Source of the DNA: Planctomycetota bacterium
Lineage (GTDB): Bacteria > Planctomycetota > J058
Length of the DNA stretch: 64,000 nucleotides
Direction: 5' to 3'
NCBI GenBank assembly: GCA_019636275.1
Contig: JAHBXY010000002.1
Location: forward strand, 56,213-120,212
This document shows positions 10,311-63,835 of the stretch, piece by piece. The notes beneath the pieces were generated by a model that did no database searches, was not told the DNA's origin, and saw only the letters and a list, made by a program, of their open reading frames with translations. Position numbers and translations under genes: made by a program. How positions within the stretch are numbered: the first letter of the stretch is position 1; every line of letters begins with the position of its first letter.

Positions 10311-10322
10311 GGCGGCGGTGGT

Positions 10323-11162: not shown

Positions 11163-11228
11163 CGAGTGACCTGTGCGCCTCGCGAGAGGACGGCGCCGGG
11201 TGCGGTCGCACCCGGCCCTTGCACCGGG

Positions 11229-11435
11229 CTACTTCTTCTCGTCGTTGATCGGGCAGCAGCAGGGCGAGATCTCCTCGCCCGTGAGCGGGCAGATGATCGT
11301 GTCCGTCTGCTGCGCCGACGTCGTGGGCGCGACCGCGGCCACGGGCTCGGTCGAGACCGGCCGGGTCGCCGCGTAGATCGCAGGTCCGCCCGCAGCGGCC
11401 GCCACAGTGAGAGCAACCAGCACCTTCGTCATCAT
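11229..11435 (-). CDS. small secreted Cys-rich peptide (signal peptide; ICPLTGEEISPCCCP), putative metal-binding/chaperone-like
   Basis: AAGGAGG RBS; ATGA overlap with the upstream MerR gene; 68 aa. Confidence 0.5.
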   Translation of the reverse strand: MMTKVLVALTVAAAAGGPAIYAATRPVSTEPVAAVAPTTSAQQTDTIICPLTGEEISPCCCPINDEKK

Positions 11436-11881
11436 TCAGCCTCCTTCGTCTTCCTGCGCCGAGTGGCGCGCTTGGTCCCTGGCTCGACCGGTGTCGCGCC
11501 TTCGAGACGGTTCATGATGGAGCAGGCGGTCGAGGGACCGCTGCCGGAGCAGCCGGCGATCAGCTTCACGAGCCTTCGTTCGAGCGTCCGAAGACCTGCG
11601 ATCCTCTGCCGGACACGGTCCAGCTTTCCGCGGGCTCGTTCGCGCACTTCCCTGGCTGTCCCAGGTCCGGCGCGAAGAGCGAGGAGATCGACGATCTCCT
11701 TCAGCGTGAAGCCCAGCGCCTGCGCCTCCTTCACGAAGCGCAGCCGCTCGGCATCACCGTCGTCGTACTCGCGATAGCCACCCCCGCCGCCGCGAGGGTC
11801 CGGCAGCAGCCCGCGGCGCTCGTAGTAGCGCACGGTCTGCACGTTGACCCCGCAGCTGCTGGCCAGCTCTCCGATCTTCAC
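11432..11881 (-). CDS. MerR-family metal-responsive transcriptional regulator (CueR/HmrR-like)
   Basis: N-terminal HTH (IGELASSCGVNVQTVRYYERRGLL), dimerisation helix, C-terminal metal-binding loop CSGSGPSTAC; GTG start. Confidence 0.8.
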   Translation of the reverse strand: MKIGELASSCGVNVQTVRYYERRGLLPDPRGGGGGYREYDDGDAERLRFVKEAQALGFTLKEIVDLLALRAGPGTAREVRERARGKLDRVRQRIAGLRTLERRLVKLIAGCSGSGPSTACSIMNRLEGATPVEPGTKRATRRRKTKEAE

Positions 11882-11900
11882 GACGACAGCGTACGCCCTC

Positions 11901-13680
11901 TACCTAGTTCCTGGCCGAGCACCAGGAAGTCCGCTTCGCAGGCTGGAGTCCTGGCGCCAGGTCGCGCCCATCTGGCCCATCCAAAAACCAAACATCGGAG
12001 GTAGAGGAGCGGCTCGCCGTCGGCGGCGAGGTGTATGGAGAGGTTTGGAACGACAACCCCAAGCCCCACACACCGAGGCGAGCCATGCGACGAACGATAC
12101 CGAAGCAGCGCCGACTGTTCACCCCCCTTGTCGAGGACGCGCTCTCCGAGGAGCTGGTAGAGATCGACGAGCTGATCCGTCTTCACCCCGAGTGGGAGGA
12201 GTGGATCCTGGAGGACCTCACGAACAGGAGGCGCGGCCGTGCGCGGCGCGGGCGTGAGGGCATGGGGCCCGATCTGGTGCTGCGGCTCCAGTTCCTCAAG
12301 CATCGGCTCGACGTCTCGCTCCGGAAGCTGTCGAAGATCGTCAATGACTCCGTCGGCTTTCGCGAGTTCCTGGGCCTCGGGGTCGAGGACCGTGCGCCGA
12401 AGCGCTCGACGATGCAGGACAACCTGGCGAAGGTCCGGCCCGAGACGTGGGGGAAGATCCTCCACTCTCATGTCCAGTCGCAGGAGCTGCGCGAGTTCGA
12501 GTCCGGTGACAAGCAGCGCGTCGACGCGACGGTCGTGAAGGCCAACATCCACCCTCCCTCCGACTCGTCGTTGCTCTGGGACGGCGTGCGGACGTTGACC
12601 AGGCTCATGAGCCAGGCGCGCCAGCTCTTCCCCGAGGTCGAGTTCGAGGACCGCAGCAAGCAGGCGAAGCGGCTTCAGTCGAAGATCTACTGGGCCCGCC
12701 GAAAGGAGCAGCGCCGCCCCGCATACGAGGCTCTGTTGAAGGAGGTGCGCTTCGTCGACACCCAGGCCGAGCGCGTGATCACGTCGCTGGAGACCGTCCG
12801 GACTCGCTCGGTGCAGGACGGCGTTCTCCGCGACGCGTTGGCCTCGGAGCTCCGTCGGTACCGCGGCCTCACCGCTCGCGTGATCGACCAGACCGAGCGG
12901 CGGGTCGTGCGGGGCGAGACGGTGCCACCCGGCGAGAAGCTGTACTCGATCTTCGAGCCTGAGACGGACATGATCGTCAAGACGAAGAACCGGCCGCCGG
13001 AGTTCGGGCACAAGGTCACGTTCACCATGGGCGTGCACTTCGTCCTCGACTGCGTCGTCGAGCGTGGGAACCCGGCGGACGTGACCCTCGCCGTGCGCCA
13101 GGTCGAGCGCCAGACGGCGCTCCGCGGGAAGGCTCCCGAGCAGGTGGCCTTCGACGGGGGCTACGCGTCAGCGGCGAACCTGGAAGCGATCAAGGCGCTT
13201 GGCGCCGAGCGCTGCGCGTTCAGCAAGGGCCGCGGCCTCACGCCCGTCGACATGGCAGGTAGCCGACGAACGTTCGGCCGTCTGCGCAACTTCCGCGCAG
13301 GCATCGAGGGAAAGATCTCCTGGTTGAAGCGCGACTTCGGTCTCGGCCGGTGCACATGGAAGAGCTGGCCTCGGTTCAGCTCGTACGTGTGGTCGGCTTG
13401 CTTCGCCGCGAACCTGAGCAAGCTCGCTCGGTTGAGGCTGAGCGCGACGGCAGCGCCAGCCAAGCGCGCCGCGTAGCCCATCGTCGCAGATCCGCCTCGC
13501 AGGCCCCCTTCCTGGGAGAGAGTGCGTACTCGTAGCCGCGACAACGAACGGAAGCGCCTCGAATACGGCTCAGCAGGCCGAGGAACTGTCTGCGAGCGCG
13601 CCGGCACACTCCAGCGGCCGGGTGGTCGCCGGCCTGGAGGCCGCGCCCCAGGCCGATTTCGGCCAGGAACTACCTAGGTA
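11901..13680 (+). mobile_element. IS element (IS5/IS1182-like), ~1.78 kb, imperfect terminal inverted repeats tacctag(gta)ttcctggccga
   Basis: IRL 11901-11918 and IRR 13659-13680 are reverse complements; single DDE transposase ORF; left end sits 20 bp upstream of the MerR start codon. Confidence 0.65.
12031..13476 (+). CDS. DDE transposase (IS5/IS1182-like family)
   Basis: Motifs AFDGGYASAANLE, FGRLRNFRAGIEGKISWLKRDFGL; the antisense ORF 11878..13038 is rejected. Confidence 0.7.
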   Translation: MYGEVWNDNPKPHTPRRAMRRTIPKQRRLFTPLVEDALSEELVEIDELIRLHPEWEEWILEDLTNRRRGRARRGREGMGPDLVLRLQFLKHRLDVSLRKLSKIVNDSVGFREFLGLGVEDRAPKRSTMQDNLAKVRPETWGKILHSHVQSQELREFESGDKQRVDATVVKANIHPPSDSSLLWDGVRTLTRLMSQARQLFPEVEFEDRSKQAKRLQSKIYWARRKEQRRPAYEALLKEVRFVDTQAERVITSLETVRTRSVQDGVLRDALASELRRYRGLTARVIDQTERRVVRGETVPPGEKLYSIFEPETDMIVKTKNRPPEFGHKVTFTMGVHFVLDCVVERGNPADVTLAVRQVERQTALRGKAPEQVAFDGGYASAANLEAIKALGAERCAFSKGRGLTPVDMAGSRRTFGRLRNFRAGIEGKISWLKRDFGLGRCTWKSWPRFSSYVWSACFAANLSKLARLRLSATAAPAKRAA

Positions 13681-47802: not shown

Positions 47803-47874
47803 TGCCGACCGCGGAAGCTCGAGCGTGGCCGCGCCCCCCGCCTCCTCATGGCAGGGGCGGCGTCCGGAGGGACG

Positions 47875-48747
47875 ATGAGTCCCATGTCCGACGGGTCCAT
47901 GCCAGCGGCGTTCCTGGGCCACGGCAGCCCCATGAACGCGCTGGAGACGAATCGCTTCACGGCGGCCTGGCGGGCGTTCGGCGCGAGCGCTCCGCGGCCG
48001 CGCGGCATCGTCGTCGTCTCGGCGCACTGGTACGTGAACGTCACGGCGGTGACCGCCATGCCGTCGCCGCGCACGATCCACGACTTCTACGGCTTCCCGC
48101 GGCCGCTGTTCGAGGTGCAGTACCCCGCGCCGGGCGACCCCGGCCTCGCCGAGGAGGTCGCCGAGGTGGCGAAGCCCACCTCGGTCGGCCTGGACCACGA
48201 CGGCTGGGGGCTCGACCACGGCACCTGGTCGGTGCTGGTCCACGCCTTCCCGCGCGCCGACGTCCCGGTCGTGCAGCTCTCGATCGACGCGCGGCGGACG
48301 TTCGACGAGCACCTCGAGCTCGGGGCGCGGCTGGCGCCGCTCCGCGCGCGTGGCGTGCTGGTCCTGGGCAGCGGTAACGTCGTCCACAACCTGCGCGAGC
48401 TCGACTGGTCCCGGCCGGACCTGGGCGAGGACTGGGCGCGGCGCTTCGACGACGCCGCGCGCGAGGTGCTGGCCGAGCGCCCGGCCGACGCGGCCGCGCT
48501 CCAGGGCCACCCCGAGTTCCGCCGGGCCCACCCGACGCCGGACCACTTCCTCCCCCTGCTGTACGTCGCCGGCGCGGCGGCCGCGGCGGGCAAGCCCCTG
48601 CGGCGGCTCGTCGCAGGGCACGCCTACGGCTCGATCTCCATGGCCGCGTACGGGCTCGCCGCGGCCTGCCCGGAGACCTCCGAGGGCGGCCCCGCCGCGA
48701 GCCTCCCGGACCCGCGCGTCGTCCCCCCGGCGGACGCGAACGTCTGA
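47875..48747 (+). CDS. class III extradiol ring-cleavage dioxygenase (LigB family; YgiD/DOPA-dioxygenase-like)
   Basis: MPAAFLGHGSPMNALE...VVSAHW...; typical length. Confidence 0.7.
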   Translation: MSPMSDGSMPAAFLGHGSPMNALETNRFTAAWRAFGASAPRPRGIVVVSAHWYVNVTAVTAMPSPRTIHDFYGFPRPLFEVQYPAPGDPGLAEEVAEVAKPTSVGLDHDGWGLDHGTWSVLVHAFPRADVPVVQLSIDARRTFDEHLELGARLAPLRARGVLVLGSGNVVHNLRELDWSRPDLGEDWARRFDDAAREVLAERPADAAALQGHPEFRRAHPTPDHFLPLLYVAGAAAAAGKPLRRLVAGHAYGSISMAAYGLAAACPETSEGGPAASLPDPRVVPPADANV

Positions 48748-49013: not shown

Positions 49014-49604
49014 ATGCTCAAGCTGGCCATCATCATTGGGAGCACGCGCCCGGGGCGCGTCGGCGAGAGCGTCGCTCGGTGGGTCCACGAGGTGGCGCAG
49101 CGGCGCGACGACGCGGAGTTCGAGCTGGTCGACATCGAGGACTTCGACCTGCCGCTGCTGGACGAGCCGATCCCGCCCGCCATGGGCAAGTACTCGAAGC
49201 CCCACACGAAGCGCTGGGCGGCGAAGATCGCCTCCTTCGACGGCTTCGTCTTCGTGACGCCCGAGTACAACCACGGCATCTCCGGCGCGCTGAAGAACGC
49301 GATCGACTTCCTCTACGCCGAGTGGAACGACAAGGTGGCCGGGTTCGTCGGCTACGGCAGCGCGGGCGGCGCGCGGGCCGTGGAGCAGCTGCGGCTGGTC
49401 ATGGCCGAGGTGCAGGTCGCGACGGTGCGCAACCAGGTCATGCTCTCGTTGCGCGAGGACTTCGAGGACTACAGCAGGTTCAGGCCGCGCAGCTTCCACG
49501 AGCAGGCGCTCGGTCAGGTGCTCGACCAGGTCGTCGCCTGGAGCGGCGCGCTCCGCGGCGTCCGGGAGGGGCACGCGACGTCCGGCGCGTCCACGCGCGG
49601 GTAG
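49014..49604 (+). CDS. NAD(P)H-dependent FMN reductase (flavodoxin-like fold)
   Basis: MLKLAIIIGSTRPGRVGE...FVTPEYNHGISGALKNAIDFL. Confidence 0.7.
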   Translation: MLKLAIIIGSTRPGRVGESVARWVHEVAQRRDDAEFELVDIEDFDLPLLDEPIPPAMGKYSKPHTKRWAAKIASFDGFVFVTPEYNHGISGALKNAIDFLYAEWNDKVAGFVGYGSAGGARAVEQLRLVMAEVQVATVRNQVMLSLREDFEDYSRFRPRSFHEQALGQVLDQVVAWSGALRGVREGHATSGASTRG

Positions 49605-52611: not shown

Positions 52612-52716
52612 CATGCGCGCGCCGCGCTGGCCGACCTCCTGCGCGGCCGCTACCTGCCCGGCGCCGCGGTCGCGCGGGGCGAGGTCCTCGCCCTGGCGCG
52701 GGTGGGGCTCACCTGA
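52612..52716. repeat. direct repeat copy 2 of the methyltransferase 3' end (...LRGRYLPGAAVARGEVLALARVGLT*)
   Basis: See 47653-47802. Confidence 0.7.
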
Positions 52717-55456
52717 CGACGCGGAAGCCGACGTCGTCCGCCCGCGCCTCGGGCGGCAGCCACGACCGGTGGGCCGAGCGCGCCCACGTCGCGTCCCAGG
52801 CGAAGCAGCCGCCGCGCAGCACGCGGCACACCCCGTAGGCCGGCCCGACCGGCGCCTCGGCGGGGCCCTCCTCGTAGGGGCCGTACCAGTCCTGCACCCA
52901 CTCCCAGGCGTTGCCGTGCACGTCGTGGAGGCCCCAGGCGTTGGCGGGCTTGAGCCCCGCCGCGCGGACGCGCCCGCCCGAGTTGTCGCGGAACCAGCCG
53001 ACGCGGTCGAGGTCGTGCACCGCGTCGCCGCTCCAGTAGGCGGTCGCGGTGCCGGCGCGGGCCATGTACTCCCACTCGGCCTCGGTCGGCAGCCGGACGG
53101 GCCGCGCGCCGCCGGCCCGCGAGAGCCAGCGGCAGAACGCGACGGCCCCGTACCAGCTCACGTCGATCGCGGGCTGCGTCGCCCACTCGGCCGGGTCGAC
53201 GCCGGCGGGCGGGCGGTGCGAGGGGGCGAACGCGGCGTACTGGCGGTTGGTCACCTGCGTCGCGCCCGCCTCCCACGCGGCCGGGAAGCTCACGCGGCGG
53301 CGGGGCTGCTCCCAGGGGAAGCCCTGCTCGTCGGGCCGCCCGCCCATGACGAACTCGCCGGCGGGGATCGGCCGCCAGTCGACGAGGTCGCGCGGCGGCG
53401 CGGCGAGGCGGTCGTAGAGCGCCCCGGCGGCGTCCGGCGCGCCGTGGCTGCGGCGCAGGAGCTCGTCGAGGAAGAACAGGTCCTCGGGCACCTCGGTGCC
53501 CCGGGCCAGGGCCGCGTCCCACAGCTCGAGGGCCAGCGCGCGGGCCTGGGCGGGGCTCAGGAGCCGGGCCGTCTGCAGGTAGACCGCGCCGCGGAGCGGG
53601 CCGCGGAAGCACGGGAGCTGCCGGGCGAGCGCGTCGAGGGCCGCGTCGACCTCCAGCCCGTCGACGTGCGCGCGGCCGAGGGCGGTCGTGAGCTCGGCGA
53701 GGCCGGCGCGCCCGGCCGCGTCGTCGCCGATCCACCCGCCGACGCGGTACTCGACCGCCTTCACGAGCCCGACGCGGGCGGAGTCGCCGACGACCGACCA
53801 CCAGTTGCGCATGCCCTCGATGAACGTGCGGGCGCGGGGGCGCTCGTCCTCGAGCGGCCGCGCGGCGGCGACGAGCGCGCGGAGCGTCGCCGGCTCGACG
53901 CGCCGCGCGCACTCGAGCCCGCGGACGGCGAGCTCGGGGTCCGCCTCGGCCAGCGCGAGCAGGAGCGCGTCGGGGCGCGCGAGCTCGCCGCAGAGGAGGA
54001 CGAACGGCTCGGCCCACTGCGAGCGCTCCCCGCCCCGGCGCAGGCCGCGCGCCGCGTCCAGCAGGGCGGCCTCGCCCTGCTCCCGCGCCTGCCGGGCGAG
54101 GCGCCGGGCGGCGAGCAGCTCCTGCAGGCTGCGGTGCCAGAACCGCCACGGGGTGCCCCGCCCGTCGGGCTGGCCGAGGATCGCCGTGCGGTCGGCGAGC
54201 TCGGTCAGGAACTCCTCGGGCCCGGCGGCCCAGCGCGAGACGCGCTCGAGGCGCTGCCAGAGCGGCGGCTCGTCGCGGAGTCGCCGCGCGACGGCGGCCA
54301 GCGGCTCCGCCACGACGCCCTCGCCGGTGAAGGCGTGCGCGACCAGCTCCAGGGCCTCCTCGGCGGCGACCAGGTCGGTCATGCGCGGCGCGGCCTCGGT
54401 CCGGTGGAGCCCCTCGAGGAGCAGCTCGAGGACCTGCGTGTAGAGCTCGTGGCGGGTCCGCGGCGGCGCCGCGCCGCCCCCGGTCGTCGGATGCGGGCGG
54501 TGCTCGCCGAGGAGGGCCGCGAAGGTCAGGAGCAGGGGGGTGCGCCGCAGCTCCGGCGCGTCGAGCAGGCCTTCGGGCAAGGCCGACGTGGCCTCTGTCC
54601 GCCCCAGGCGGCGGAGGAAGTCGGCCACCTGCGCGTCGCTCAGCGGGTTGAGCGTGGCGATCTCGAAGCCGCCGGGGCAGCGCAGGCCCTGCGGCCGGCT
54701 GGTGACGACGATCGGAGAGGGCCACGCTGCCGCCGCGACCTTCAGCAGGCTGCGCACCTGCTCGCGCTTGACCGGCAGCACCTCGTCGAGGCCGTCGAGG
54801 AGCAGCACCAGGCCGCCCTGAGCCGCCAGCTCGACCAGCGCCGGGGCGTGGGCGCCCTTCGAGGCCAGGAGCGACTCCGGGAGGTCCGGCCGGAAGGGCT
54901 CCAGGGCCAGCTCGGCCAGCCGGACGACGACCGGGTGGTGCTCGGCGAGCTCGTCGCAGGCGAGGTCGTGGGCCAGGGCGTGGACGAGCGTCGTCTTGCC
55001 GGAGCCGACGTCGCCCACGACCAGCCAGCGCCCGGGGCCGTCGTCGCGCGAGCTCCAGAGGAGGCTCCTGGGGCGCTCCGCGGCGCGGGTCGGCGAGAGC
55101 GCCAGCGTCCGCTCGATCGCGTGGTCGCGCAGGGGCAGGGCGCGCGAGAGCGTCATGCCGGTCAGGAGGTTGGCGTTGCCGCTGTCCGCCGCGACGGCGG
55201 CGCGGAGGCGCTCCAGGTCCGACAGGGGCTCGCCGAGGGGCGCGGGGGTGTCCGCGAGCTGGAGCTGAGCGATCGACCGGGCGAGCGCCTTCGCCACGCT
55301 CCCGAGCGACCCCCGGCGCACGCGCTCGCCGCGCTCGATCCGGCGCAGCGTCTGGACGTCCACGAAGGCCTTGTCCGCCAGGCCCTCCTGGCTCCAACCC
55401 TTTGCTTCGCGAAGGGTTCGGACGAGCCCGCCGTTGGCACGTACCTCTCGCCGCAT
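52709..55456 (-). CDS. STAND NTPase: N-terminal XRE-type HTH, NACHT ATPase, helical region, C-terminal FGE-sulfatase (SUMF1/formylglycine-generating-enzyme-like) domain
   Basis: HTH LRTLREAKGWSQEGLADKAFVDVQTLRRIERG; Walker A VVGDVGSGKTT; Walker B VLLLDGLDEV; C-terminal ...WYGAVAFCRWLS...RLPTEAEWEYMARAG...GLHDVHGNAWEW...RVLRGGCF (FGE-sulfatase fold). The ATG of MRREV is read ~1 nt from the computed in-frame codon at 55456. Confidence 0.7.
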   Translation of the reverse strand: MRREVRANGGLVRTLREAKGWSQEGLADKAFVDVQTLRRIERGERVRRGSLGSVAKALARSIAQLQLADTPAPLGEPLSDLERLRAAVAADSGNANLLTGMTLSRALPLRDHAIERTLALSPTRAAERPRSLLWSSRDDGPGRWLVVGDVGSGKTTLVHALAHDLACDELAEHHPVVVRLAELALEPFRPDLPESLLASKGAHAPALVELAAQGGLVLLLDGLDEVLPVKREQVRSLLKVAAAAWPSPIVVTSRPQGLRCPGGFEIATLNPLSDAQVADFLRRLGRTEATSALPEGLLDAPELRRTPLLLTFAALLGEHRPHPTTGGGAAPPRTRHELYTQVLELLLEGLHRTEAAPRMTDLVAAEEALELVAHAFTGEGVVAEPLAAVARRLRDEPPLWQRLERVSRWAAGPEEFLTELADRTAILGQPDGRGTPWRFWHRSLQELLAARRLARQAREQGEAALLDAARGLRRGGERSQWAEPFVLLCGELARPDALLLALAEADPELAVRGLECARRVEPATLRALVAAARPLEDERPRARTFIEGMRNWWSVVGDSARVGLVKAVEYRVGGWIGDDAAGRAGLAELTTALGRAHVDGLEVDAALDALARQLPCFRGPLRGAVYLQTARLLSPAQARALALELWDAALARGTEVPEDLFFLDELLRRSHGAPDAAGALYDRLAAPPRDLVDWRPIPAGEFVMGGRPDEQGFPWEQPRRRVSFPAAWEAGATQVTNRQYAAFAPSHRPPAGVDPAEWATQPAIDVSWYGAVAFCRWLSRAGGARPVRLPTEAEWEYMARAGTATAYWSGDAVHDLDRVGWFRDNSGGRVRAAGLKPANAWGLHDVHGNAWEWVQDWYGPYEEGPAEAPVGPAYGVCRVLRGGCFAWDATWARSAHRSWLPPEARADDVGFRVVR

Positions 55457-55530
55457 CCTGCCTACGTGACCCTCGATCGGATTGTAGCGGAGCTGCCCCA
55501 ACCCTCGCCACGTCCAGTAAATACGCACCG

Positions 55531-55560
55531 TAGTTCCCGGTCTAGTTCCCTGTAGTTCCC
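55531..55560. promoter_or_regulatory. three tandem copies of TAGTTCCC (spacings 12 and 10 bp) upstream of the HTH-NACHT gene, candidate operator
   Basis: ccgTAGTTCCCggtcTAGTTCCCtgTAGTTCCCtatg, seen directly. Confidence 0.35.
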
Positions 55561-55758
55561 TATGTGCGCCCTTCCTTCGAGGTGGTCCCCGAGACACCCT
55601 GGGCCCGGGACCTGTGCGATCCACGCGGTCGGTTGGCTGGCGGTCGGGGGAACGACCGCCAGCCGGGCACAGGGGGGAGAAGGGCGGATGGTGCGCCGCA
55701 GTCGCCGGAGCACCGAGCGCCGAGGTCCATGCGAGCGACAACCGGAGGCGAGCCTCAG

Positions 55759-55911
55759 ATGAACCCGCCCGTGGACCTCGGCGCCCTGCTGGTGGTCCTG
55801 GAGTACGCTCAGGCGGTCCAGGACAGTGTGGCCGTGCAGCTCGAGTCGACGCTCGGCGAGCAGGCCCGGAGCCTGCTCGTCCAGCTGGAGCTGACGGCGT
55901 CGTTGAACTGA
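55759..55911 (+). CDS. small ORF (50 aa, predicted helical: MNPPVDLGALLVVLEYAQAVQDSVAVQLESTLGEQARSLLVQLELTASLN)
   Basis: GGAGG RBS 8 nt upstream of ATG; between the NACHT gene and the azoreductase. Weak. Confidence 0.25.
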   Translation: MNPPVDLGALLVVLEYAQAVQDSVAVQLESTLGEQARSLLVQLELTASLN

Positions 55912-56078
55912 CGACGCGTCCCCGAGCCGACCCCCGCGCCGACCGGCCGGCGTGCCGCCGACCGGCCGGCGCGGACGGCGGCCGGACGGTCCGCCGGCGT
56001 CGGGAGTTAGCTCGCGGTCTGCTTCATGCAACGGGACGGGTCGTGCAGCGACGGTCGCTCGCTGCGGAAGGACCCGTC

Positions 56079-56702
56079 ATGAAGCTCCTGCACGTCGACT
56101 CCAGCATCCTCGGCGCGGACTCCGCCTCGCGTCGGCTCACGCAGGCGGTCGTCGACCGCTTCGCGCGTGCCGACCCCGGGCTCGAGGTCGTCCGCCGCGA
56201 CCTGGCCGCCGAGCCCCTGGCCCACCTGTCCGGCGCGCTCCTGGCGGCCGCGCGCGGCGGCGCGACCGAGGTCGACGAGGCGGTCGCCCGCGACCTCGCC
56301 CGCGACCGTCAGGCGCTGGCCGAGTTCCTCGCCGCCGACGTCGTGGTGATCGGCGCGCCCATGTACAACTTCACCGTCCCCACGCAGCTCAAGGCCTGGC
56401 TCGACCGCCTGGCGGTGGCCGGGACGACGTTCAAGTACACGGCCGAGGGCGCGGTTGGCCTCGTGCGCGGCAAGCGCGTGGTCGTGGTCTCGACGCGCGG
56501 CGGCGTCTACGCCGAGGGCGGGCCCGACTTCCAGGAGCCCTACCTGCGCGCCTTCTTCGCCTTCCTGGGCGTCACCGACCTCGAGGTCGTCCGCGCCGAG
56601 GGCCTGGCCCTGGGGCCCGCGCCGCGGCAGCGCGCGCTCGACGAGGCGGCCGCGCGGGTCGCGGCGCTGGCCACCGACGCGGCGGGAGCGGTCGCCGCGT
56701 AG
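56079..56702 (+). CDS. azoR: FMN-dependent NADH-azoreductase (AzoR/AcpD-like flavodoxin-fold protein)
   Basis: MKLLHVDSSILGADSASRRLTQAVV...IGAPMYNFTVPTQLKAWLDR; GAAGGA RBS. Confidence 0.7.
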   Translation: MKLLHVDSSILGADSASRRLTQAVVDRFARADPGLEVVRRDLAAEPLAHLSGALLAAARGGATEVDEAVARDLARDRQALAEFLAADVVVIGAPMYNFTVPTQLKAWLDRLAVAGTTFKYTAEGAVGLVRGKRVVVVSTRGGVYAEGGPDFQEPYLRAFFAFLGVTDLEVVRAEGLALGPAPRQRALDEAAARVAALATDAAGAVAA

Positions 56703-56708
56703 CGTCGG

Positions 56709-57368
56709 TCAGTTGAACTCCGACGCCGCGAGGAGCGGAGCGCCGGCGTGACACGCCTCGCACGCGGGCGGGAGGACCGCCCGCCAGCGCGCCGACACGA
56801 GCCAGGTCATGGGCAGGGCGCGCGCCGCGAGCATGGCCTTGGCGGCGTCGGGCTCCACGAGCCCGAACAGGTAGACCCCGATCACCTGGCAGCCGGCAGC
56901 CTCCGCGAGCGCGAGGAGGCGCTCCAGCGAGGCGGCAGTGGTGGCGACGTCGTTGACGACGACCACCGGCCGTCCTGGCGTCAGCCGCCCGGCCCGCAGC
57001 GGGAGGCCGAGCGGGCGCCGCCGGAGGTCGATCCGCGCCGTCGCGAGGCTCGCGCGGAGCTCGACGGCCACGGCGTGGCCCAGCGCGAAGCCGGCCGACT
57101 CGGGCGAGAGGACCGTGAGCTCGAGGCCGAGCGGAGGGTGCGAGGCGCCGAGCAGCCAGCGCGCGACCTGCTCGACGGCGGCGCGGTCGCGGCCGATCTG
57201 CGCGAAGCGGAGGAAGTACGGGGCATGGTGCCCGCTCTGGAGGGCGAAGTGACCCTGGAGGAGGGCGCCGGTCGCGGCCACGACGTCCAGCAGCGCCGCG
57301 GCCGGCACCCCGTTGGGTTCGACCGTGAGCCGCTCGGCCAGCTCCTCGCGATCGACGACGAAGCTCAC
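56709..57368 (-). CDS. type I phosphoribosyltransferase (PRTase) domain protein
   Basis: PRPP-binding motif VVVVNDVATTAAS; GTG start overlapping stop of the upstream wHTH gene (GTGA). Confidence 0.55.
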   Translation of the reverse strand: MSFVVDREELAERLTVEPNGVPAAALLDVVAATGALLQGHFALQSGHHAPYFLRFAQIGRDRAAVEQVARWLLGASHPPLGLELTVLSPESAGFALGHAVAVELRASLATARIDLRRRPLGLPLRAGRLTPGRPVVVVNDVATTAASLERLLALAEAAGCQVIGVYLFGLVEPDAAKAMLAARALPMTWLVSARWRAVLPPACEACHAGAPLLAASEFN

Positions 57369-58477
57369 GCGTCCACCGTGACGAGCTCGAGCTCCGCCAC
57401 GGGCGCGGCGTCGGCCGAGGCGAGGCAGGCGCGCCGGCTGGCCGCCTGCAGCGCGCCCCGGCGCTGGTCGCGCAGGAAGAGCATCAGGTTGTCGTAGAGG
57501 ACGAGCGCGCCGTCCGTCGGGATCCGCGTCGCCAGCTCGGCGTCCTGGTCGTCGAGGGTCCGCGCGTCGAGCCCGAGATGAAGCCGGAGGGACGCGTCCC
57601 ACTTGTCCCGGAGGCGCGAGGTGCGGACGAACAGCTTCGTCCCGGCGGGGGCCAGGCGCTTGATCTTGTCGAAGAGCGCCGGCAGCCCGGCGCCAGGCGC
57701 GTCGTCGCCGAGCCCGCGCTCGACGAGCGCCTCGAGCTCGCTGGCGAGGCGGTGCTGGGCCGTGATCTCGGTCGCCCAGAAGACCCCGGCCTCGGTCTGA
57801 CGCGCGAGGCCACGGTCGGCCGCCAGCTCCATCACGGAGTCGATCACGTCGTCGCTCGATCGCTCGCCGAGCGCCGCTGCGCACATGCGGCGAAGCTCGC
57901 GCGAGGAGACGCGCCGGGCCACCGCCAGCTCGACCACCATGTCGAGGACGAAGCCGATCAGCCCACGATCCGGCGGCCGGCCGGGCGCCTGCGCGAGGCG
58001 CTCGACGAGCCGCCGGCCGGGCGGCGTGAGCCGGTACCACCTCGACCGGCCGTCGGCGTCGGGATCGCGGTCGACCTCGTGGATCCAGCCGTTGCGGACG
58101 AAGGCCCCGAGCGCGCGGGAGACGACGGCGCGGTCGCGTCCGGTCAACTCCGCGAGCTCCGTGTTCCGCCGGGGAGCCGTGTCGAGGGCCTGGAGGAGCT
58201 CGGGCCAGCCGGAGCGCGCCTGCACGGCCCGGACGGCTGCGGCCAGGTCCTCCTCGGACTCATGGGCGAGGAGGAACCCGGCGAGCAGGTCGTCGAGCGC
58301 CGCGCGGTAGCCGGCCGAGTAGTCGTCCCCGTCGCCCAGGCTGGCGATCCCGGCCCTGACCGCGGCAAGCTCCGCGGCAGAACCCTTCGCGAGCTCGCGG
58401 CCGAGCTGCTGCCCGACGCTCTGGAGGGCGGCGCGCGCGCCCGAGCGCAGGCGCTCGAGGAGACGAACGAGCTTCAT
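57365..58477 (-). CDS. winged-HTH (MarR/PadR-like) domain protein with large uncharacterised N- and C-terminal regions
   Basis: LAELTGRDRAVVSRALGAFVRNGWIHEV; translationally coupled to the PRTase. Confidence 0.45.
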   Translation of the reverse strand: MKLVRLLERLRSGARAALQSVGQQLGRELAKGSAAELAAVRAGIASLGDGDDYSAGYRAALDDLLAGFLLAHESEEDLAAAVRAVQARSGWPELLQALDTAPRRNTELAELTGRDRAVVSRALGAFVRNGWIHEVDRDPDADGRSRWYRLTPPGRRLVERLAQAPGRPPDRGLIGFVLDMVVELAVARRVSSRELRRMCAAALGERSSDDVIDSVMELAADRGLARQTEAGVFWATEITAQHRLASELEALVERGLGDDAPGAGLPALFDKIKRLAPAGTKLFVRTSRLRDKWDASLRLHLGLDARTLDDQDAELATRIPTDGALVLYDNLMLFLRDQRRGALQAASRRACLASADAAPVAELELVTVDA

Positions 58478-58548
58478 GGCGCTGCTCCCCCTTTGATGAT
58501 GCCTCCATGACGGGGGTCGTCCAGACCTCCGTCAAGCATACGGCAATG

Positions 58549-58578
58549 ACATTTATCACGAAGTCAATCATTTGTCAA
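58549..58578 (-). promoter_or_regulatory. sigma70-like promoter on the minus strand: TTGACA-18 nt-TAAATG, ~70 nt upstream of the wHTH/PRTase operon
   Basis: Reverse complement of 58549-58578 reads ttgacaaatgattgacttcgtgataaatg, in an AT-richer intergenic patch. Confidence 0.4.
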
Positions 58579-59928
58579 CTATGGGTGCCTGACGTCCACG
58601 ATCGGATCTCCCAGGGTGACCAGGGTCAGGGAGCTGCCCTGCTGAGGGTCCAGCGTGAACGCCCGCGGCCCCGTGGTGCTCGTCCGTACCGGCCGGGCCA
58701 CGATCGCCGTCGAGGCCCCGGCGGCGCGAAGGCCGTTGGCGACGAGAGTGGTCGCCTGGCAGTCGAGAACGAGCTGCTCCGCGCGGACGCAGAACTCGCC
58801 GGTGCGATCGGTCAGGGCCGGGACGAGCACGAGGGTGGCGCGGAGCGCGGTCGCGAGCGCCGTGGCCTCCGCATCCAGAAAGTCCTTACACACCAGCAGC
58901 AGGACCGAGGAGCGACCGCTCACCAGGAGCCGGAGCCGCTTCTTTGGCCAGATGTCCTCGTGCCGGTCGAGGCCTCCTGCCTCTCGGATCACGTAAGGGG
59001 CGTACTTCCGGTGCTCGTGCCGCCCTCCGGTGGTCAGCAGGGTCGTGACGTTCTCCCCAGGCTGATCGCGGTCTGATCTGGGGACGTGGCGGCTGCCCGC
59101 GACGACGCCGAACGGGGCCTCTCCGGGTCGTAGCCAGCCCTCCAGGGTGGCGAGCAGGGCGTCGTCCACGAGCAGCTCGGGGAGGACGACGAGGTGCGCG
59201 CGGCTCTCTCGCGCACGCTCCAGGAGCTCCAGGATCTCGGCGCGCACGCGCTCCCGGTCGGTGGGCCGCACGTCGTAGAAGAGGGGCTGGTCACCGCGCT
59301 CGTAGGAGTCCTTGTCCAGGTTGCCAGGTGCCAGGGGCGCGGGGCACGCGGCTCCGAGCCGGAGGTCCGGGCGTAGCGCCACGGGCGCGAGCGCGCCGTC
59401 GAGCCCCCACGAGAGCGTCACCTCGACTCCCCGTAGGTCGTCGGGCGCCAGGGTGAACCGCAAGGTCCGGTCCGTCGGTGGCGTCGTCGTCTCAGGGTTC
59501 GTCGTGAGGCGCACGTCGTCCCCGAAGGTCGTCCGGTCTGGCGGCCGGATCGGGACGAGCGCCCGGGGCGTGACCGCGAGCTCAGGGCCGTGTAGCCGCT
59601 GGAGCTGCTGCGTGATCGCGTCGGCGTGCTCCGCCGAGAGGTGCCCGGCGAGGAGCCATGCGACGACGACCTCCGGCAGGGCGTCTACAAGAGCCGCGTC
59701 GACGGCCGCACGGAGCTCGTCGAGCTCCTCGGCGAAGAGCTCGTCGTCGTCGAGCGCGCGGACGCACGAGCGGAGCGCGACGTCGTGCGCGTGGAGCATC
59801 CGCGCATTCTCGGGCGCGACGAGCGCGACTCGGAGCGCGCCCGCGCCGTCCCGGCACTCGGCGAGGAGGCCCGCGAGGAGGGTCGACATGGCGAGTGGCG
59901 GCGGACCGGCGAGCAGGTTCGAGACCAT
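58579..59928 (-). CDS. carbon-nitrogen hydrolase (nitrilase superfamily)-like protein with N-terminal extension
   Basis: Putative E-K-C triad context: HLVVLPE, HEHRKYAPY, LLLVCKDF. Confidence 0.45.
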   Translation of the reverse strand: MVSNLLAGPPPLAMSTLLAGLLAECRDGAGALRVALVAPENARMLHAHDVALRSCVRALDDDELFAEELDELRAAVDAALVDALPEVVVAWLLAGHLSAEHADAITQQLQRLHGPELAVTPRALVPIRPPDRTTFGDDVRLTTNPETTTPPTDRTLRFTLAPDDLRGVEVTLSWGLDGALAPVALRPDLRLGAACPAPLAPGNLDKDSYERGDQPLFYDVRPTDRERVRAEILELLERARESRAHLVVLPELLVDDALLATLEGWLRPGEAPFGVVAGSRHVPRSDRDQPGENVTTLLTTGGRHEHRKYAPYVIREAGGLDRHEDIWPKKRLRLLVSGRSSVLLLVCKDFLDAEATALATALRATLVLVPALTDRTGEFCVRAEQLVLDCQATTLVANGLRAAGASTAIVARPVRTSTTGPRAFTLDPQQGSSLTLVTLGDPIVDVRHP

Positions 59929-60431: not shown

Positions 60432-61709
60432 CTACGCCCCCCCGAAGACCGCCGTGACGATCGCCCGGCGCAGCCCTTCGGCCGCGCGGCCGGACACGTA
60501 GGCCTCGGTCACCTGCTCGAGGTCGACCTCGAGCCCGACGACGCGGCCTGGGCGGCCGGCGCGGGGGCGGCCGACGAGGTCGTGCGTCGCGCGCAGCCGG
60601 ACGCCGGCGCCCGGGACGAGCGCGGGGAAGAGGAAGGCGTTTCCGACGGCGTCGAGCGGCGGGCCCTGCGGGTCGACGAGGTCCGAGTGGAGGAGGCGGT
60701 AGAGGACCTGCTTGCCCAGGTCCGGGGTGCCGGGCAGCGCCCCTGCGTCGTAGTCCTTGGCGTCGAGCACCAGGAGGACCGCGCGGCCGTCGGGCAGGCG
60801 GTCGCGGACGACGACGTCCGGCCGGAGGTTCAGGCCCGGGAGGAGCGAGCCGTCCGGGAGGCGATAGGTGCCGCGCAGGCCGGCGCCGCGCCCCTCGTCG
60901 CGGAGGGCGACCTGGAGCATGCGCTCCCACACGTGCGCGTAGCTGCGGGCGAAGAGGCCGCGGACCTCGGCCCCGCGCTCCGAGGCCTCGCGCGCGGCGT
61001 GGTAGCGGCGCAGGAGAGCCAGGAGCCGGCGCGGGCGGTCGGCGAAGCACACGCGCTCGCCGCGCTCGATCCGGTCGAGCGCCTCGGTGGGCGGGATCGG
61101 CGGGCGCTCGCCGGCGCCGCCCAGGCCGAAGCGCGCGCCGATCTGCTCGCACGTGGCCTCGTGCAGGTCGGTGAGCTCGTGGCGCGGGTCCGGGCGCACG
61201 GAGCGTCGCGGCAGGGCCCGGAAGACGACCCCGGTGCGCCCCTGGACCGGCGCGCCGTCGCGGAGCGCCTGCGGCCAGAGCACCCGGCCCGGGACCTGGT
61301 CGTGGACCCGGGGGGCGCTGACGAGCAGCGGGCCGCGCTCGACGAAGTCGCGCCAGAGGAGGAGGGCCGCCTCGACCTGGTCGACGAGGTCGCCCGGGTC
61401 GCCGACCGCGACGAGCGCGCCTTCGCGCGTGGCCAGCGCCGGGTCGTCGACGGCGCGGCCGCCCGGACGCTCGCGCGCGTAGCGGGCGAGGCTGGAGACG
61501 AACAGGGCCACGCGCTCCAGGGCAGCGCCGGGGTCGAGCGGCGCGCCCGCGTAGCAGCGGGGCAGGACGACGACGAGCCGCCCGCCGACGCTGGCGAGCC
61601 CCGGCAGGAGCGAGGGCGCGCCGTCCGCGGTGGACCACGCCTCCGGCGGCAGGCCGGCGGCAGGGTCGAGCGGCTGGCCCGCGACCAGGAGCCGGACCGG
61701 CGCGGTCAC
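60432..61709 (-). CDS. mcrC: McrC-like restriction endonuclease subunit (PD-(D/E)xK)
   Basis: RPDVVVRDRLPDGRAVLLVLDAKDY (PD...DAK nuclease motif); GTG start overlaps McrB stop (GTGA). Confidence 0.6.
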   Translation of the reverse strand: MTAPVRLLVAGQPLDPAAGLPPEAWSTADGAPSLLPGLASVGGRLVVVLPRCYAGAPLDPGAALERVALFVSSLARYARERPGGRAVDDPALATREGALVAVGDPGDLVDQVEAALLLWRDFVERGPLLVSAPRVHDQVPGRVLWPQALRDGAPVQGRTGVVFRALPRRSVRPDPRHELTDLHEATCEQIGARFGLGGAGERPPIPPTEALDRIERGERVCFADRPRRLLALLRRYHAAREASERGAEVRGLFARSYAHVWERMLQVALRDEGRGAGLRGTYRLPDGSLLPGLNLRPDVVVRDRLPDGRAVLLVLDAKDYDAGALPGTPDLGKQVLYRLLHSDLVDPQGPPLDAVGNAFLFPALVPGAGVRLRATHDLVGRPRAGRPGRVVGLEVDLEQVTEAYVSGRAAEGLRRAIVTAVFGGA

Positions 61710-63835
61710 CCGGCCGGGCCGTCAGGCGGCTCGTCGCCGGCGTCGTGGCGCCCGAGGGCCGCGAGGACGTCGCCCTGGAAGACGTGCCGCCCCTGGTCGT
61801 AGCGGGCGAGGAGCGCCTCGTAGGTGACGACGTCACCGCGGAAGACTCGCGCCGGGCGGTCCCGGAAGACGGTCGCCCACAGGTAGAAGAGCACCTTCGA
61901 CTTGAACTCGACCGCGTCGACGAGGACCTCGCCCACGGGCGGGCGAATGAACCAGGGGCCCATCTGCTTGTCGTCCGAGCGGGCGTGGTCGACGATCGCG
62001 CGGTTGAGCGTCTGCATGAGCGTCATCCACGACACGCCGGTCTCGTCGGCTGCGTGGAGGCGGACGCGGGCGTTGGGCTGCCGCGGGGTGTCGACCCCCA
62101 TGTAGGACATGCCCCAGCGCCGCCGGAAGGCGGTGTCCATGGGGAACAGGCTCTGGTCCGACGTGTTCATCGTCGCGTAGAGGTAGAGGTTGCCCGGGAG
62201 GCGGAGCTGCCGCGTGGCCTGGTCGAACACGGGCGAGCCGGTCACCTCCCGCTCGAGCCACGCCGCCCACTCGGCCGAGGGCACGATCCCGTACTGGCTC
62301 CAGCCCTCGTGCTCGCGCGCCTTCGCGTCGCCGGCCCGGTCGAGGAGCTGGAACACGTCGCCGAAGATCGCCGCGCAGTTGCCCCGGTTGATCTCCTCGA
62401 TCACCAGCACGACCGGCGCAGCCGGCGAACGCGCCGCGAGCGCGAGCGCCTGGCTGAACGGGCCCGGCTCGAAGCGGTAGTAGGTGCGCGGCTCGCGGTC
62501 GCGCTCGACGCCGTCGGCGTCGACGAACGTCGCCGTGGTCCGCAGCCAGCCCACCGCCGGGCGGTAGCTGCCGACGAAGTCGAAGTAGCTGTACTCCGGG
62601 TGGAAGGTCACCCGCTTGACGTGCTCCGGCCGCGCGTCGAGGTGCTTGGTGACGATCTCCTGCACCTGGTAGCTCTTCCCCGTGCCGGGCGGGCCGAAGA
62701 AGATCACGTTGCGGTGCCGCGCCCAGACGCTCTCCTCGACCTCTTCCGGCCCTTCCTCCTCTTCGACGGCGTCCGTGACGTCGAGCACCTCGTCGCCCTC
62801 GAGGCCGTCCGTGAGGCCGTGCAGGAGGTGCCCGAACTGGTTCAGGGGCAGCGTGTCGACCCCGCGCTCGCGGAGCGCGCCGGCGACCGTGTCGCGCTCC
62901 TCGGGGATCAGCAGGGCGGCGACCTCGGGGGCGCTCGGGTCGACATGGAAGAAGCTGTAGACGTTCAGAGACGTGGTCCGGCGCTCCGGGCTCTCGACGG
63001 GGATGCAGAGGCCACTCCCGTACTGGTTGAGCGAGACCGTCTTGTTGACGCTCGAGCGGAGCGCCTCCGCGCTCCAGCGCCAGTGCTTCCGGTGGGCTTC
63101 GTGAAGCAGTCCATCGGCGTAATCGGCCGGGATCTGCTCCAGCCTGTCGACCATGCTCTGCGTGACGCGGACACGGATCTCGTCGCCCACGAGGAGTCCG
63201 TCGATCCGACGGTCACGCTGCCCCTTCCAGTAGAGCGGGAGGACGACCTCCCGCCCCGCGCGCTCGGCACGTTCCTGGAGGATCGCCCACAGGTGGGCGC
63301 GCCAGGCGTTTCCGCCCGGCTCGACCGCCCGCTCCCGCCGGAAGCTGGCGAACTCGCGGACGAAGCGCGCGATCGAACCGACGAGCTCGGGCGCGCCGAT
63401 CTCGCCCAGCAACGCGACCGGGCGGCCGTCGACCTCGACGACCTCGCCCTTCCAGGCCTGGAGGAACTGCCGCCACTGCTCCTGGCCGCTGAGCCCGCCG
63501 ACGCGCCCGAGGTGGACCTTGCCGTCGGGGCCGCGGAGGAACAGGCCGCTGAACTGGCGCGAGCGTCCTTGCCGAGGGGTGTTCACCTCGACCGCGCAGC
63601 GATCGTTCTCCTGGGGGTCGCCGATCCCGAGGAGGCAGCAGTAGCGGTCCTCGCGCCCCTCGTCGAAGGCGGCCCAGAACTCCTCGCGCTCGAGGACGTG
63701 GACGGGGAGGTTCGCCTTGCGGCCGCTGGCGCGGACGATCGGCAACGTCCCCGCTGGCCGACCGGCCGTGCTGCACTGCTTCTCGAGCGCCTGGAAGCTG
63801 TCGCGGAGCTCCGCCGCCGACTCGACGACCTTCAC
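61706..63835 (-). CDS. mcrB: McrB-like AAA+ GTPase restriction subunit with a ~370-aa non-canonical N-terminal (DNA-recognition) region
   Basis: Walker A VIFFGPPGTGKS; McrB signatures LVIEEINRGN and LYLYATMNTSDQS. Confidence 0.75.
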   Translation of the reverse strand: MKVVESAAELRDSFQALEKQCSTAGRPAGTLPIVRASGRKANLPVHVLEREEFWAAFDEGREDRYCCLLGIGDPQENDRCAVEVNTPRQGRSRQFSGLFLRGPDGKVHLGRVGGLSGQEQWRQFLQAWKGEVVEVDGRPVALLGEIGAPELVGSIARFVREFASFRRERAVEPGGNAWRAHLWAILQERAERAGREVVLPLYWKGQRDRRIDGLLVGDEIRVRVTQSMVDRLEQIPADYADGLLHEAHRKHWRWSAEALRSSVNKTVSLNQYGSGLCIPVESPERRTTSLNVYSFFHVDPSAPEVAALLIPEERDTVAGALRERGVDTLPLNQFGHLLHGLTDGLEGDEVLDVTDAVEEEEGPEEVEESVWARHRNVIFFGPPGTGKSYQVQEIVTKHLDARPEHVKRVTFHPEYSYFDFVGSYRPAVGWLRTTATFVDADGVERDREPRTYYRFEPGPFSQALALAARSPAAPVVLVIEEINRGNCAAIFGDVFQLLDRAGDAKAREHEGWSQYGIVPSAEWAAWLEREVTGSPVFDQATRQLRLPGNLYLYATMNTSDQSLFPMDTAFRRRWGMSYMGVDTPRQPNARVRLHAADETGVSWMTLMQTLNRAIVDHARSDDKQMGPWFIRPPVGEVLVDAVEFKSKVLFYLWATVFRDRPARVFRGDVVTYEALLARYDQGRHVFQGDVLAALGRHDAGDEPPDGPAG

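Follow-up and report, generated by a model that had tools for sequence, protein, structure and literature searches.

The 64,000-nucleotide stretch of Planctomycetota DNA analysed here (the window; 71% GC; contig JAHBXY010000002.1 of GenBank assembly GCA_019636275.1, positions 56,213 to 120,212) carries on its minus strand a gene for a 915-residue protein in which an N-terminal helix-turn-helix (HTH), a NACHT module, a helical arm and a C-terminal domain with the fold of the formylglycine-generating enzyme (FGE) are joined, and upstream of which stand three direct repeats that we propose as the operator of the protein's own HTH. The protein is a rare bacterial relative of the animal NOD-like immune receptors in which a DNA-binding head takes the place of a killing domain. 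Judged by its domains and upstream DNA, its most likely role is the control of transcription, in the first place that of its own gene. The features that enter the argument, all on the minus strand, are these:

52709..55456, minus: coding sequence of the 915-aa HTH-NACHT-FGE protein (ATG 55456, stop 52709-52711; from the list of open reading frames and the ortholog alignment)
55268..55423, minus: XRE-type HTH, residues 12-63 (Pfam HTH_3 and HTH_31 above cut-off)
54017..55036, minus: NACHT nucleotide-binding oligomerisation module, about residues 141-480 (Pfam, invariant motifs, Foldseek)
53387..54016, minus: all-helical spacer or 'arm', about residues 481-690 (continuous helices 479-681 in the AlphaFold2 model)
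52712..53371, minus: FGE-sulfatase (C-type-lectin-like, 'FGS') domain, residues 696-915 (Pfam PF03781)
55481..55486, minus: predicted -10 hexamer TACAAT (sequence reading and cross-locus conservation)
55505-55510, minus: poor -35-like TGGCGA (sequence reading)
55530..55560, minus: three direct repeats GGGAACTA(C/G), the proposed operator (repeat search and conservation across loci)

We place the start of the gene at ATG 55456, which gives the length of about 915 residues that the earlier note on this DNA had assumed, because nine orthologs (53-97% identity) align from that methionine and because the DNA upstream of it diverges like non-coding DNA: between the window and L001, a locus of 97% identity, the 34 nt from the predicted -10 to the ATG diverge heavily and the coding region does not. 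A start at GTG 55528 would yield 939 residues, and the extra 24 codons (72 nt) are not conserved as protein among the orthologs and differ much more between the window and L001 than the coding sequence does. Automatic gene calls in two relatives (L001 at 10001, L004 at 3673) do have this 939-residue form, beginning at a GTG directly after the third repeat and traversing the predicted promoter and 5′ leader (55457-55528 in the window); alignment and divergence favour the ATG 24 codons downstream. That the caller-chosen start codon of some relatives runs through the promoter is a practical correction. An exact look-up of the 915-residue product returned no record, and the orthologs were reached by homology search.

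The N-terminal HTH of XRE type that had been read from the letters alone is recovered by HTH_3 (PF01381; residues 12-63, 32.3 bits against a cut-off of 23, 1e-7) and by HTH_31 (PF13560; 27.9 bits against 27, 3e-6). It is modelled as a helical bundle with a pLDDT (per-residue model confidence) of about 90, it is weakly similar to a 434-repressor-like protein, to C.AhdI and restriction-modification controllers and to ClgR, and its recognition-helix region, D33-V-Q-T-x-R-R-x-E-R42, is invariant across the aligned orthologs. The NACHT P-loop module was likewise correctly identified by the earlier note from GSGKTT and hhhhDGLDE, both of which are present, with PF05729 matching residues 145-284 above its cut-off (46.3 bits against 26.7, 5.6e-12); its position was not, since the note had given about 230-420, some 90 residues too late, numbers that would fit counting from the longest open reading frame. 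The Walker motifs do not belong to a non-NACHT AAA family, a possibility the note had itself raised, as the competing AAA, AAA_16 and nSTAND models all fall under their cut-offs in Pfam. Walker A, GDVGSGKTT at 148-156 (GSGKTT at 151-156), fits GxxxxGK[ST], and Walker B, LVLLLDGLDEV (LLLDGLDEV at 218-226), contains D221-G-L-D-E225, which is the NACHT signature D[GAS]hDE that, in the parts of Kibby et al. drawn on here, sets NACHT apart from the other STAND clades. The NACHT sensor-1 is TSRP (R254) and the winged-helix histidine, His441, sits in FWHRSLQELL; G148, G151, G153, K154, D221, G222, D224, E225, R254 and H441 are invariant in 48/48 NACHT-FGE proteins. An AlphaFold2 model of the 915-residue protein, built from the alignment of these 48 proteins, has a pLDDT of 87 and a pTM (predicted template-modelling score) of 0.82, and in Foldseek the centre of this predicted model aligns to ADP-bound NOD2 and to the NACHT modules of NLRC4 and NLRP3 over 520-570 columns (E 4e-12 to 5e-9; template-modelling (TM) score 0.67 when normalised to the crystal structure of the NLRP3 NACHT domain). 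Motifs, profile and fold all make the protein a NACHT-clade member of the STAND NTPases, and from its residues the nucleotide switch of the module looks intact. The helical arm that follows (about 481-690) matched no Pfam family and has a mean pairwise identity of 71% among the orthologs.

At the C-terminus the predicted FGE-sulfatase domain is present at residues 696-915 (PF03781, 139.3 bits against a cut-off of 23.3, 2.3e-40), and the fold matches human FGE, TvpA and PvdO with a target-normalised TM of about 0.7 (0.69-0.71 for human FGE; Foldseek). The enzymatic label, formylglycine-generating or sulfatase-modifying, that had come with this prediction does not hold, for the copper-binding catalytic residues of human FGE, Cys336 and Cys341 in GGSYMC336HRSYC341, align to W887 and A892, so that both cysteines are absent, and W887 is invariant across the orthologs. 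Judged by these residues the domain is catalytically dead and cannot be a formylglycine-generating enzyme, and with the catalytic residues missing we dropped a reading of it as an active enzyme. Since the cysteines are missing and the best PDB sequence match is the non-enzymatic TvpA of T. denticola (2y3c, 2.5e-24; human FGE about 1e-19), we read the domain as a ligand sensor, presumably of a conserved ligand, that would be neither an enzyme nor a hypervariable receptor. Indeed its last 36 residues (880-915) are the most conserved segment of the protein, with 80% mean pairwise identity among the orthologs. A diversity-generating retroelement (DGR) was looked for and rejected: the last 392 nt of the gene have no repeat in the 64-kb window beyond chance, the C-terminus is conserved, and no open reading frame of more than 250 aa with YxDD, as expected of a reverse transcriptase, occurs in the window.

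The element that ties this protein to transcription is the repeat array. The octamer TAGTTCCC occurs exactly three times in the 64 kb, at 55531-38, 55543-50 and 55553-60, against an expectation of 0.26 from shuffled sequence (0/100 shuffles reached three), and the copies lie 75-104 bp upstream of ATG 55456, just where the earlier note had seen three repeats at 75-105 bp. On the gene strand the repeat unit is 9 nt, GGGAACTA(C/G), with a spacing of 10 and 12 bp start to start. A triple array of the GGGA(A/T) type with 10-12 bp spacing is found ahead of the gene, or of the two-gene operon that holds it, at 10/10 distinct loci for which there is upstream DNA (proteins 49-80% identical to that of the window), namely the window, L004, L109, L111, L006, L110, L086, L002, L003 and L007; an eleventh locus, L001 (97%), carries the window's own array, and L005 was left out of the count, its contig ending inside a translationally coupled upstream gene. 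The units are as follows:

Window (and L001, 97%): GGGAACTACA / GGGAACTAGACC / GGGAACTACG
L004, 80% identity: GGGAACATCC / GGGAACTTAC / GGAAAATTAC
L109, 80% identity: GGGAACTTCC / GGGAACTTCC / GGGATCTTCG
L111, 79% identity: GGGAACTTCC / GGGAGGTCCC / GGGAACACTG
L006, 78% identity: GGGATCTCCC / GGGAAGTCCC / GGGAAGCAGT
L110, 78% identity: GGGAACAACA / GGGAACTCCC / GGGAACTCCC
L086, 72% identity: GGGAACTTCA / GGGACTTCCC / GGGAACACGA
L002, 62% identity: GGGAATCCCC / GGGAACTAACC / GGGATCTTCG
L003, 53% identity: GGGATACAAG / GGGAACTAGG / GGGAACTTCG (inverted)
L007, 49% identity: GGGCTGGACG / GGGAACTAGA / GGGAACTTCG (inverted)

The consensus of these 30 units is GGGAACTnCc, in which G1 and G2 are kept in 30/30, G3 and A4 in 29/30, A5 in 23/30, and C6 and T7 in 22/30 each, while the intergenic DNA around the arrays is otherwise unalignable among the loci. 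The search pattern was written after four loci had been seen, and the arrays of L003, L007, L086, L109, L110 and L111, found later, are independent tests of it. A first-order Markov model of these loci predicts about 0.002 matches to the pattern per kb on both strands together; in about 900 kb of loci encoding HTH-less NACHT-FGE proteins there were four scattered matches, none of them at a gene start. Among the loci compared, GGGAAC-N3-7-GGGAAC is confined to those of the HTH family, and the protein's own HTH is the sole DNA-binding domain that always co-occurs with the array. On this comparison the array is a conserved cis-element tied to the HTH-bearing family, and the suggestion that the HTH autoregulates its gene through the repeats gains strong comparative support from the presence of the array at 10/10 distinct loci and its absence from the promoters of HTH-less relatives. 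In the marine clade (L003, L007) the inverted array precedes a short FAD-binding-type gene that itself lies upstream of the NACHT gene on the same strand (L003 6246-7074, L007 4090-4926) and encodes a protein of 240-258 aa with only an N-terminal FAD/NAD GxGxxG motif. The array of L111 overlaps the 3′ end of the low-molecular-weight phosphatase gene that lies upstream, with a gene for an SBF-family transporter (PF01758) beside it. In L109, L110, L111, L006 and L086 the 10-bp unit is itself palindromic (GGGAACTTCC, GGGAnnTCCC), and such arrays can also be read as alternating GGGA and TCCC half-sites every 5 bp, of which the units of the window have lost the TCCC half.

Between the array and the start codon lies a predicted promoter. 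A conserved hexamer of the TAnAAT type stands 15-30 bp ahead of the start codon, as TACAAT in the window and L006, TACACT in L002 and TAGAAT in L004, L086, L109, L110 and L111; it is conserved in L001 too, and L086 has a complete TTGCTT-18-TAGAAT. With transcription taken to start about 7 nt after the predicted -10, the window has its repeat centres at about -60, -72 and -82 and L086 at about -58, -68 and -79, which lets the repeats face the same side of the helix. Their distance upstream of the weak -35 is about 20-36 bp in six of the eight co-oriented loci examined and about 60-65 bp in L004 and L110. Sites upstream of the -35 are in the usual position of an activator rather than of a simple repressor. 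The 5′ intergenic region has no Rfam match to a known RNA at E up to 1. In L003 and L007 a second conserved -10, of TAGAGT type, stands between the FAD-type gene and the NACHT gene. Further upstream in the window, about 85 bp beyond the triple repeat and present in L001 too, is a perfect 12-bp inverted repeat at 55635-55664 (GGCTGGCGGTCG / CGACCGCCAGCC) whose 6-nt loop, TTCCCC on the gene strand, includes TTCCC, the complement of GGGAA.

The family so defined is very small and very rare in sequence space. A word-indexed search of 5.8 billion clusters found about a dozen sequences with the exact HTH-NACHT-FGE architecture, an exhaustive search through 1.84 billion representatives clustered at 50% identity gave a single full-length one (P0008) and one fragment, a scan of GTDB representatives yielded only one more HTH-type locus (L007/L008, from one metagenome-assembled genome), and a metagenome scan added one further locus, L086. 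L064, which seemed to be a full-length ortholog, was rejected on account of a different N-terminus. A homology search started from residues 1-142 alone gave no scored match, even the known orthologs escaping it. At L111 (7561-10416; the 79% ortholog) the gene is split into a 683-aa HTH-NACHT reading frame and a separate 213-aa FGE reading frame, which we attribute to a frameshift, pseudogenisation or an assembly error. The NACHT-FGE core by itself is widespread and carries an exchangeable N-terminus, either TIR_2, DUF4062, CHAT or a metallophosphatase. As the closest NACHT modules (40-44% identity over about residues 140-540) are those of TIR_2-NACHT-FGE proteins and the HTH sits in the 'effector' position, the sequences indicate that the HTH replaced a TIR-type immune effector and that the family arose from TIR-NACHT-FGE immune-type proteins. 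Such a swap within one NACHT lineage shows how a switch of the immune type may turn into a transcription factor or serve as one besides.

We propose a model in which the protein is a transcription factor of the STAND class whose NACHT switch is gated by a ligand and which assembles as a multimer on its own promoter, and we hold this to be probable with moderate confidence. At rest, the protein would be a closed, ADP-bound monomer, with the invariant His441 contacting the nucleotide as in NLRC4, NOD2 and Apaf-1. Binding of a conserved ligand by the FGE-like domain would release the helical arm and open the NACHT module, and nucleotide exchange or ATP binding would then lead to head-to-tail multimerisation. 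The several like-oriented N-terminal HTHs of such an assembly would cooperatively occupy the three GGGAAC sites on the same face of the DNA; by analogy with other head-to-tail assemblies, their parallel N-termini suggest a better fit to direct repeats than to the inverted repeats commonly bound by XRE dimers. The likeliest effect would be activation of the protein's own promoter, and hence positive feedback. The activated protein might also act on a neighbour, either divergent or in the same transcript, and on further promoters of the genome. The neighbouring targets would differ by lineage: in the window the 50-aa reading frame and the AzoR-like gene, in L002 a trypsin-like peptidase, in L004 a SAP-like reading frame, and in L003 and L007 the FAD-type gene. 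Further targets probably lie beyond the DNA examined. Whether the signal is derived from a phage or is endogenous we rate at roughly even odds, and the transcription-factor mechanism holds either way. A more ambitious form of this model, which we offer tentatively and think less likely to be right than wrong, is that the protein is an NLR-type (NOD-like receptor) immune receptor with transcription as its effector arm, a prokaryotic counterpart of CIITA and NLRC5 made by the TIR-to-HTH swap, which would amplify its own expression and a dispersed regulon upon meeting a conserved ligand derived from an invader or from stress. With a sensor, a DNA-binding output and a recognisable operator in hand, phages, metabolites and peptides could be screened for the trigger with a promoter reporter. 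If true, this would be the first FGS-sensor NLR whose activation a simple reporter can read, its output being a defined promoter.

The surroundings of the gene in the window hold the following features:

47848-48747: LigB-type extradiol dioxygenase gene
49014-49604 and 56079-56702, on either side of the locus: AzoR-like flavodoxin-fold FMN (flavin mononucleotide) reductase genes
55759..55911, plus: divergent 50-aa open reading frame (MNPPVDLGALLVVLEYAQ..., MNPPVDLGALLVVLEYAQAVQDSVAVQLESTLGEQARSLLVQLELTASLN), with a third-position GC content of 0.96 and GGAGG upstream
56709-59928, minus: three co-directional genes between the AzoR-like and McrC-like genes, for a phosphoribosyltransferase (PRTase), a winged-HTH (wHTH) protein and a 449-aa protein
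60432-63835, minus: LlaJI-type McrC/McrB pair, of 425 aa (RE_LlaJI match) and 709 aa (AAA_5; PADLOC 'REase_II' 2e-48)

The 50-aa reading frame lies in the array-bearing intergenic region and may be co-regulated, its membership in the system being uncertain: it is called as a gene in L001, from which it differs by a single, synonymous substitution, it matches no Pfam or PADLOC family, and it was found beside the closest relative only and not beside more distant orthologs. Between it and the AzoR-like gene, at 55920-55990, are repeats rich in GC, both tandem and inverted (CGCCGACCGGCCGGCG occurs two times at a distance of 19 bp), that may form a terminator-like or regulatory structure. Both AzoR-like genes and the LigB-type gene look like ordinary metabolic genes, and on the flank of the HTH-NACHT-FGE gene that faces away from McrBC there is a GH15 glycosidase. 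The co-directional trio consists of a 219-aa PRTase (PF00156), a 370-aa wHTH protein that matches the HVO_A0261_N and IclR-type HTH models and, faintly, 'wHTH-PRTase associated' (PF24409), and the 449-aa protein without a family; PADLOC recognises none of the three, and their location within a restriction island points to a possible conflict module of the wHTH-PRTase type that has yet to be characterised. The McrBC-like pair continues beyond 63832, and in L001 a type I restriction S subunit gene precedes it. The NACHT gene had been described as sitting beside McrBC. An McrC/McrB pair is indeed present, but about 5 kb away and with five genes in between, namely the 50-aa reading frame and those for the AzoR-like flavoprotein, the PRTase, the wHTH protein and the 449-aa protein.

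Across the family these surroundings are not shared. Defence genes occur within about 5 kb in one of the ten distinct contexts, that of the window and L001, and the other nine have none by Pfam labels, in what is a small sample. A six-frame all-against-all comparison of ±4 kb at seven loci found no partner gene conserved family-wide, the neighbourhoods being otherwise unrelated, and sharing is local to lineages: L004 and L006 have a downstream gene in common, and L002 and L005 each have a receiver-domain gene, that of L005 being the C-terminal receiver of a longer protein without a visible DNA-binding domain. Reading of the sequences added the upstream FAD-type gene that L003 and L007 share. 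In L002 (62%) a 223-aa trypsin-like peptidase (PF13365; 9090-9761, minus) is divergent from the NACHT gene (10001-12736) across the repeat-bearing intergenic region. Trypsin-like peptidases are listed among the effector types of NTPase conflict systems (Kaur et al.), and that of L002 may be a lineage-specific regulated effector.

The earlier note took the protein for a candidate anti-phage NLR-like sensor, and here we part from it, as there are no meaningful PADLOC or NCBIfam defence matches, a DNA-binding domain occupies the effector position, defence genes are close in one context of ten and the presumed ligand surface, far from evolving fast, is conserved more than any other part of the protein. 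In its sharpest form this explanation holds that the protein is a stand-alone anti-phage NLR of the abortive-infection type, whose FGE domain would sense a phage component and whose HTH would merely keep the gene repressed until a non-transcriptional stop by the NACHT oligomer, be it a toxic assembly, the sequestration of a phage molecule or a partner encoded elsewhere, is called for. We consider this unlikely, with several observations on its side: the N-termini of the closest relatives (TIR, CHAT, DUF4062, metallophosphatase) are typical of conflict systems, NACHT+FGS proteins have been proposed as antigen receptors (Kibby et al., in the parts drawn on; Kaur et al.; PMC13581612), the LlaJI-type McrBC pair, the type I S subunit and the wHTH-PRTase pair lie about 5 kb off in the window and L001, and the HTH weakly resembles restriction-modification controller proteins. 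On the other side, Pfam detects neither an enzymatic or pore-forming effector in the protein nor any immune-type effector in the N-terminal position, which the XRE HTH occupies, no partner gene is conserved across the loci, and nine of ten distinct contexts are without defence genes. PADLOC gives only P-loop or HTH fragments at E of at least 3e-4, and the NCBIfam defence models antiphage_EruA and HyoA reach 13 bits against 1000 and 12 bits against 1200. Neither the 80% mean identity of the sensor's C-terminal surface, a sign of strong purifying selection, nor the lack of a DGR points to an arms race, and the repeats stand upstream of the -35 and not over the core promoter, where a simple repressor normally sits. 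According to a survey (Nature 2026), STAND clades with and without a role in defence are intermingled, and switches of function have been numerous.

Two further explanations concern the array and the sensor separately. The repeats might not be the protein's own operator, and be bound instead by another factor or serve as an UP-like or curved-DNA promoter element, with the HTH binding elsewhere or nowhere. Phased direct repeats are indeed typical of OmpR/PhoB-type regulators, and response-regulator genes lie near two of the orthologs, L002 and L005. The nearby receiver proteins are not conserved, though, and that of L005 lacks a visible DNA-binding domain, whereas the array follows the gene through 10 unrelated neighbourhoods in several lineages, is not found at the promoters of HTH-less NACHT-FGE relatives and has the protein's own HTH as the only DNA-binding domain that always co-occurs with it, which leaves this explanation decidedly improbable. 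Public annotation would make an enzyme of the protein, a catalyst of formylglycine-generating or sulfoxide-synthase-like type under the control of the NTPase: the Planctomycetota metagenome-assembled-genome protein MBX3465521.1 (a 97%-cluster member, in the cluster of P0001) is named 'SUMF1/EgtB/PvdO family nonheme iron enzyme' at NCBI, and the NCBIfam models of EgtB, PvdO and SenA give partial matches over their C-terminal halves. These matches are far under cut-off (78 bits against 360) and cover the common C-terminal fold only, W887 and A892 stand in place of the copper-binding cysteines, and the best sequence match, TvpA, is non-catalytic. In EgtB the iron ligands are carried by an N-terminal DinB-like domain, and Pfam detected no DinB-like domain in the 915-residue protein. 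We find an enzyme very hard to credit. With the FGE cysteines missing and no DinB-type iron-binding domain detected, the public name is misleading.

Several points weigh against the ligand-gated transcription factor that we favour. The assignment of the operator rests on co-occurrence, XRE HTHs usually bind inverted repeats as dimers, and the palindromic units of several orthologs mean that a dimer may sit on each unit. A generic sigma-70 and terminator scan of 55300-56150 returned no consensus promoter or terminator, and the start of transcription is a predicted one; the empty sigma-70 result fits the weak -35. The proximal unit lies anywhere from 43 to 94 bp from the -10 and the marine clade (L003, L007) has its array in the opposite orientation, and for these reasons the sign of the regulation is a preference and not a result. 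Finally, a factor that regulates only itself would be pointless, and neither the 64-kb window nor the ortholog contigs contain a second array, so that within them no regulon beyond the gene itself is visible.

The system to which the window protein is closest in build is the group of NACHT proteins with FGE/C-type-lectin ('FGS') sensors, which form one of two proposed 'antigen-receptor' classes of bacterial NLR-like proteins. This antigen-receptor type is represented in the parts of Kibby et al. drawn on here by TIR+NACHT+FGE-sulfatase (clade 23) and NACHT+FGS (clade 1), the sensor type is also noted in PMC13581612, and a DGR-diversified form is described in PMC10907252, which states that the STAND proteins with a C-type-lectin/FGE sensor all await experimental characterisation. 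The window protein shares with these proteins the NACHT-arm-FGE core, the order of output, NACHT and sensor, and an inert FGE fold. It differs in having an XRE HTH rather than TIR, CHAT, DUF4062 or phosphoesterase, in having a conserved cis-element at its own promoter, and in being without a DGR, a hypervariable C-terminus or a consistent defence-island context. The DGR variable proteins of the TvpA/Mtd type likewise use a non-enzymatic, ligand-binding version of the FGE-type C-type-lectin fold; by contrast, the window has no reverse transcriptase and no template repeat, and the equivalent of the variable region is nearly invariant among the orthologs.

The domain combination had been called uncharacterised, which stands for the triple of HTH, NACHT and FGS/FGE, as this has no occurrence in the examined text of the architecture table of Kibby et al., and does not stand for its parts, since NACHT+FGS, TIR+NACHT+FGE and HTH+NACHT with other sensors have already been catalogued in silico. 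An HTH in the N-terminal effector position is found likewise in HTH+NACHT+Imm-LRR (Streptomyces albus, clade 4) and HTH+NACHT+HEAT (Nodularia, clade 13), with different sensors and in different NACHT clades, and the parts of Kibby et al. drawn on describe no operator or target DNA for either. The same parts note the transcriptional role of CIITA. In the portions of the literature examined there was no defined operator for any bacterial NACHT protein. Measured against these portions, what is new here is the triple combination and the cis-element only.

As a mechanism the model follows that of MalT, whose multimerisation leads to cooperative binding to MalT boxes and recruitment of RNA polymerase (PMC4381067); PMC13581612 counts MalT, GutR and AfsR among the STAND regulators without an immune role. 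MalT, GutR of B. subtilis and AfsR likewise unite a STAND ATPase, a sensor and a DNA-binding domain in one polypeptide, and the three GGGAAC units of the window may be likened to the short asymmetric sites, arrayed ahead of a weak promoter, to which MalT binds cooperatively. In GutR and AfsR/SARP-LAL the DNA-binding domain is at the N-terminus, as in the window protein. The likeness is an analogy of mechanism only, with no homology outside the STAND core, membership in the MalT, LuxR-GerE or SARP families having been rejected for want of a Pfam match at E up to 0.1. In contrast to this class, the ATPase of the window protein is a NACHT with DGLDE and not of the MalT or NB-ARC-like clades, its DNA-binding fold is XRE and not LuxR or SARP, and its sensor has the FGE/C-type-lectin fold and not TPR or SUPR repeats. 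Among animal proteins the nearest counterparts in function are the mammalian NACHT NLRs CIITA and NLRC5, which likewise belong to the NACHT clade and act on gene expression, not as death or inflammasome effectors. CIITA and NLRC5 are co-activators without direct DNA binding and have LRR C-termini, whereas the protein described here has an HTH of its own and a candidate operator.

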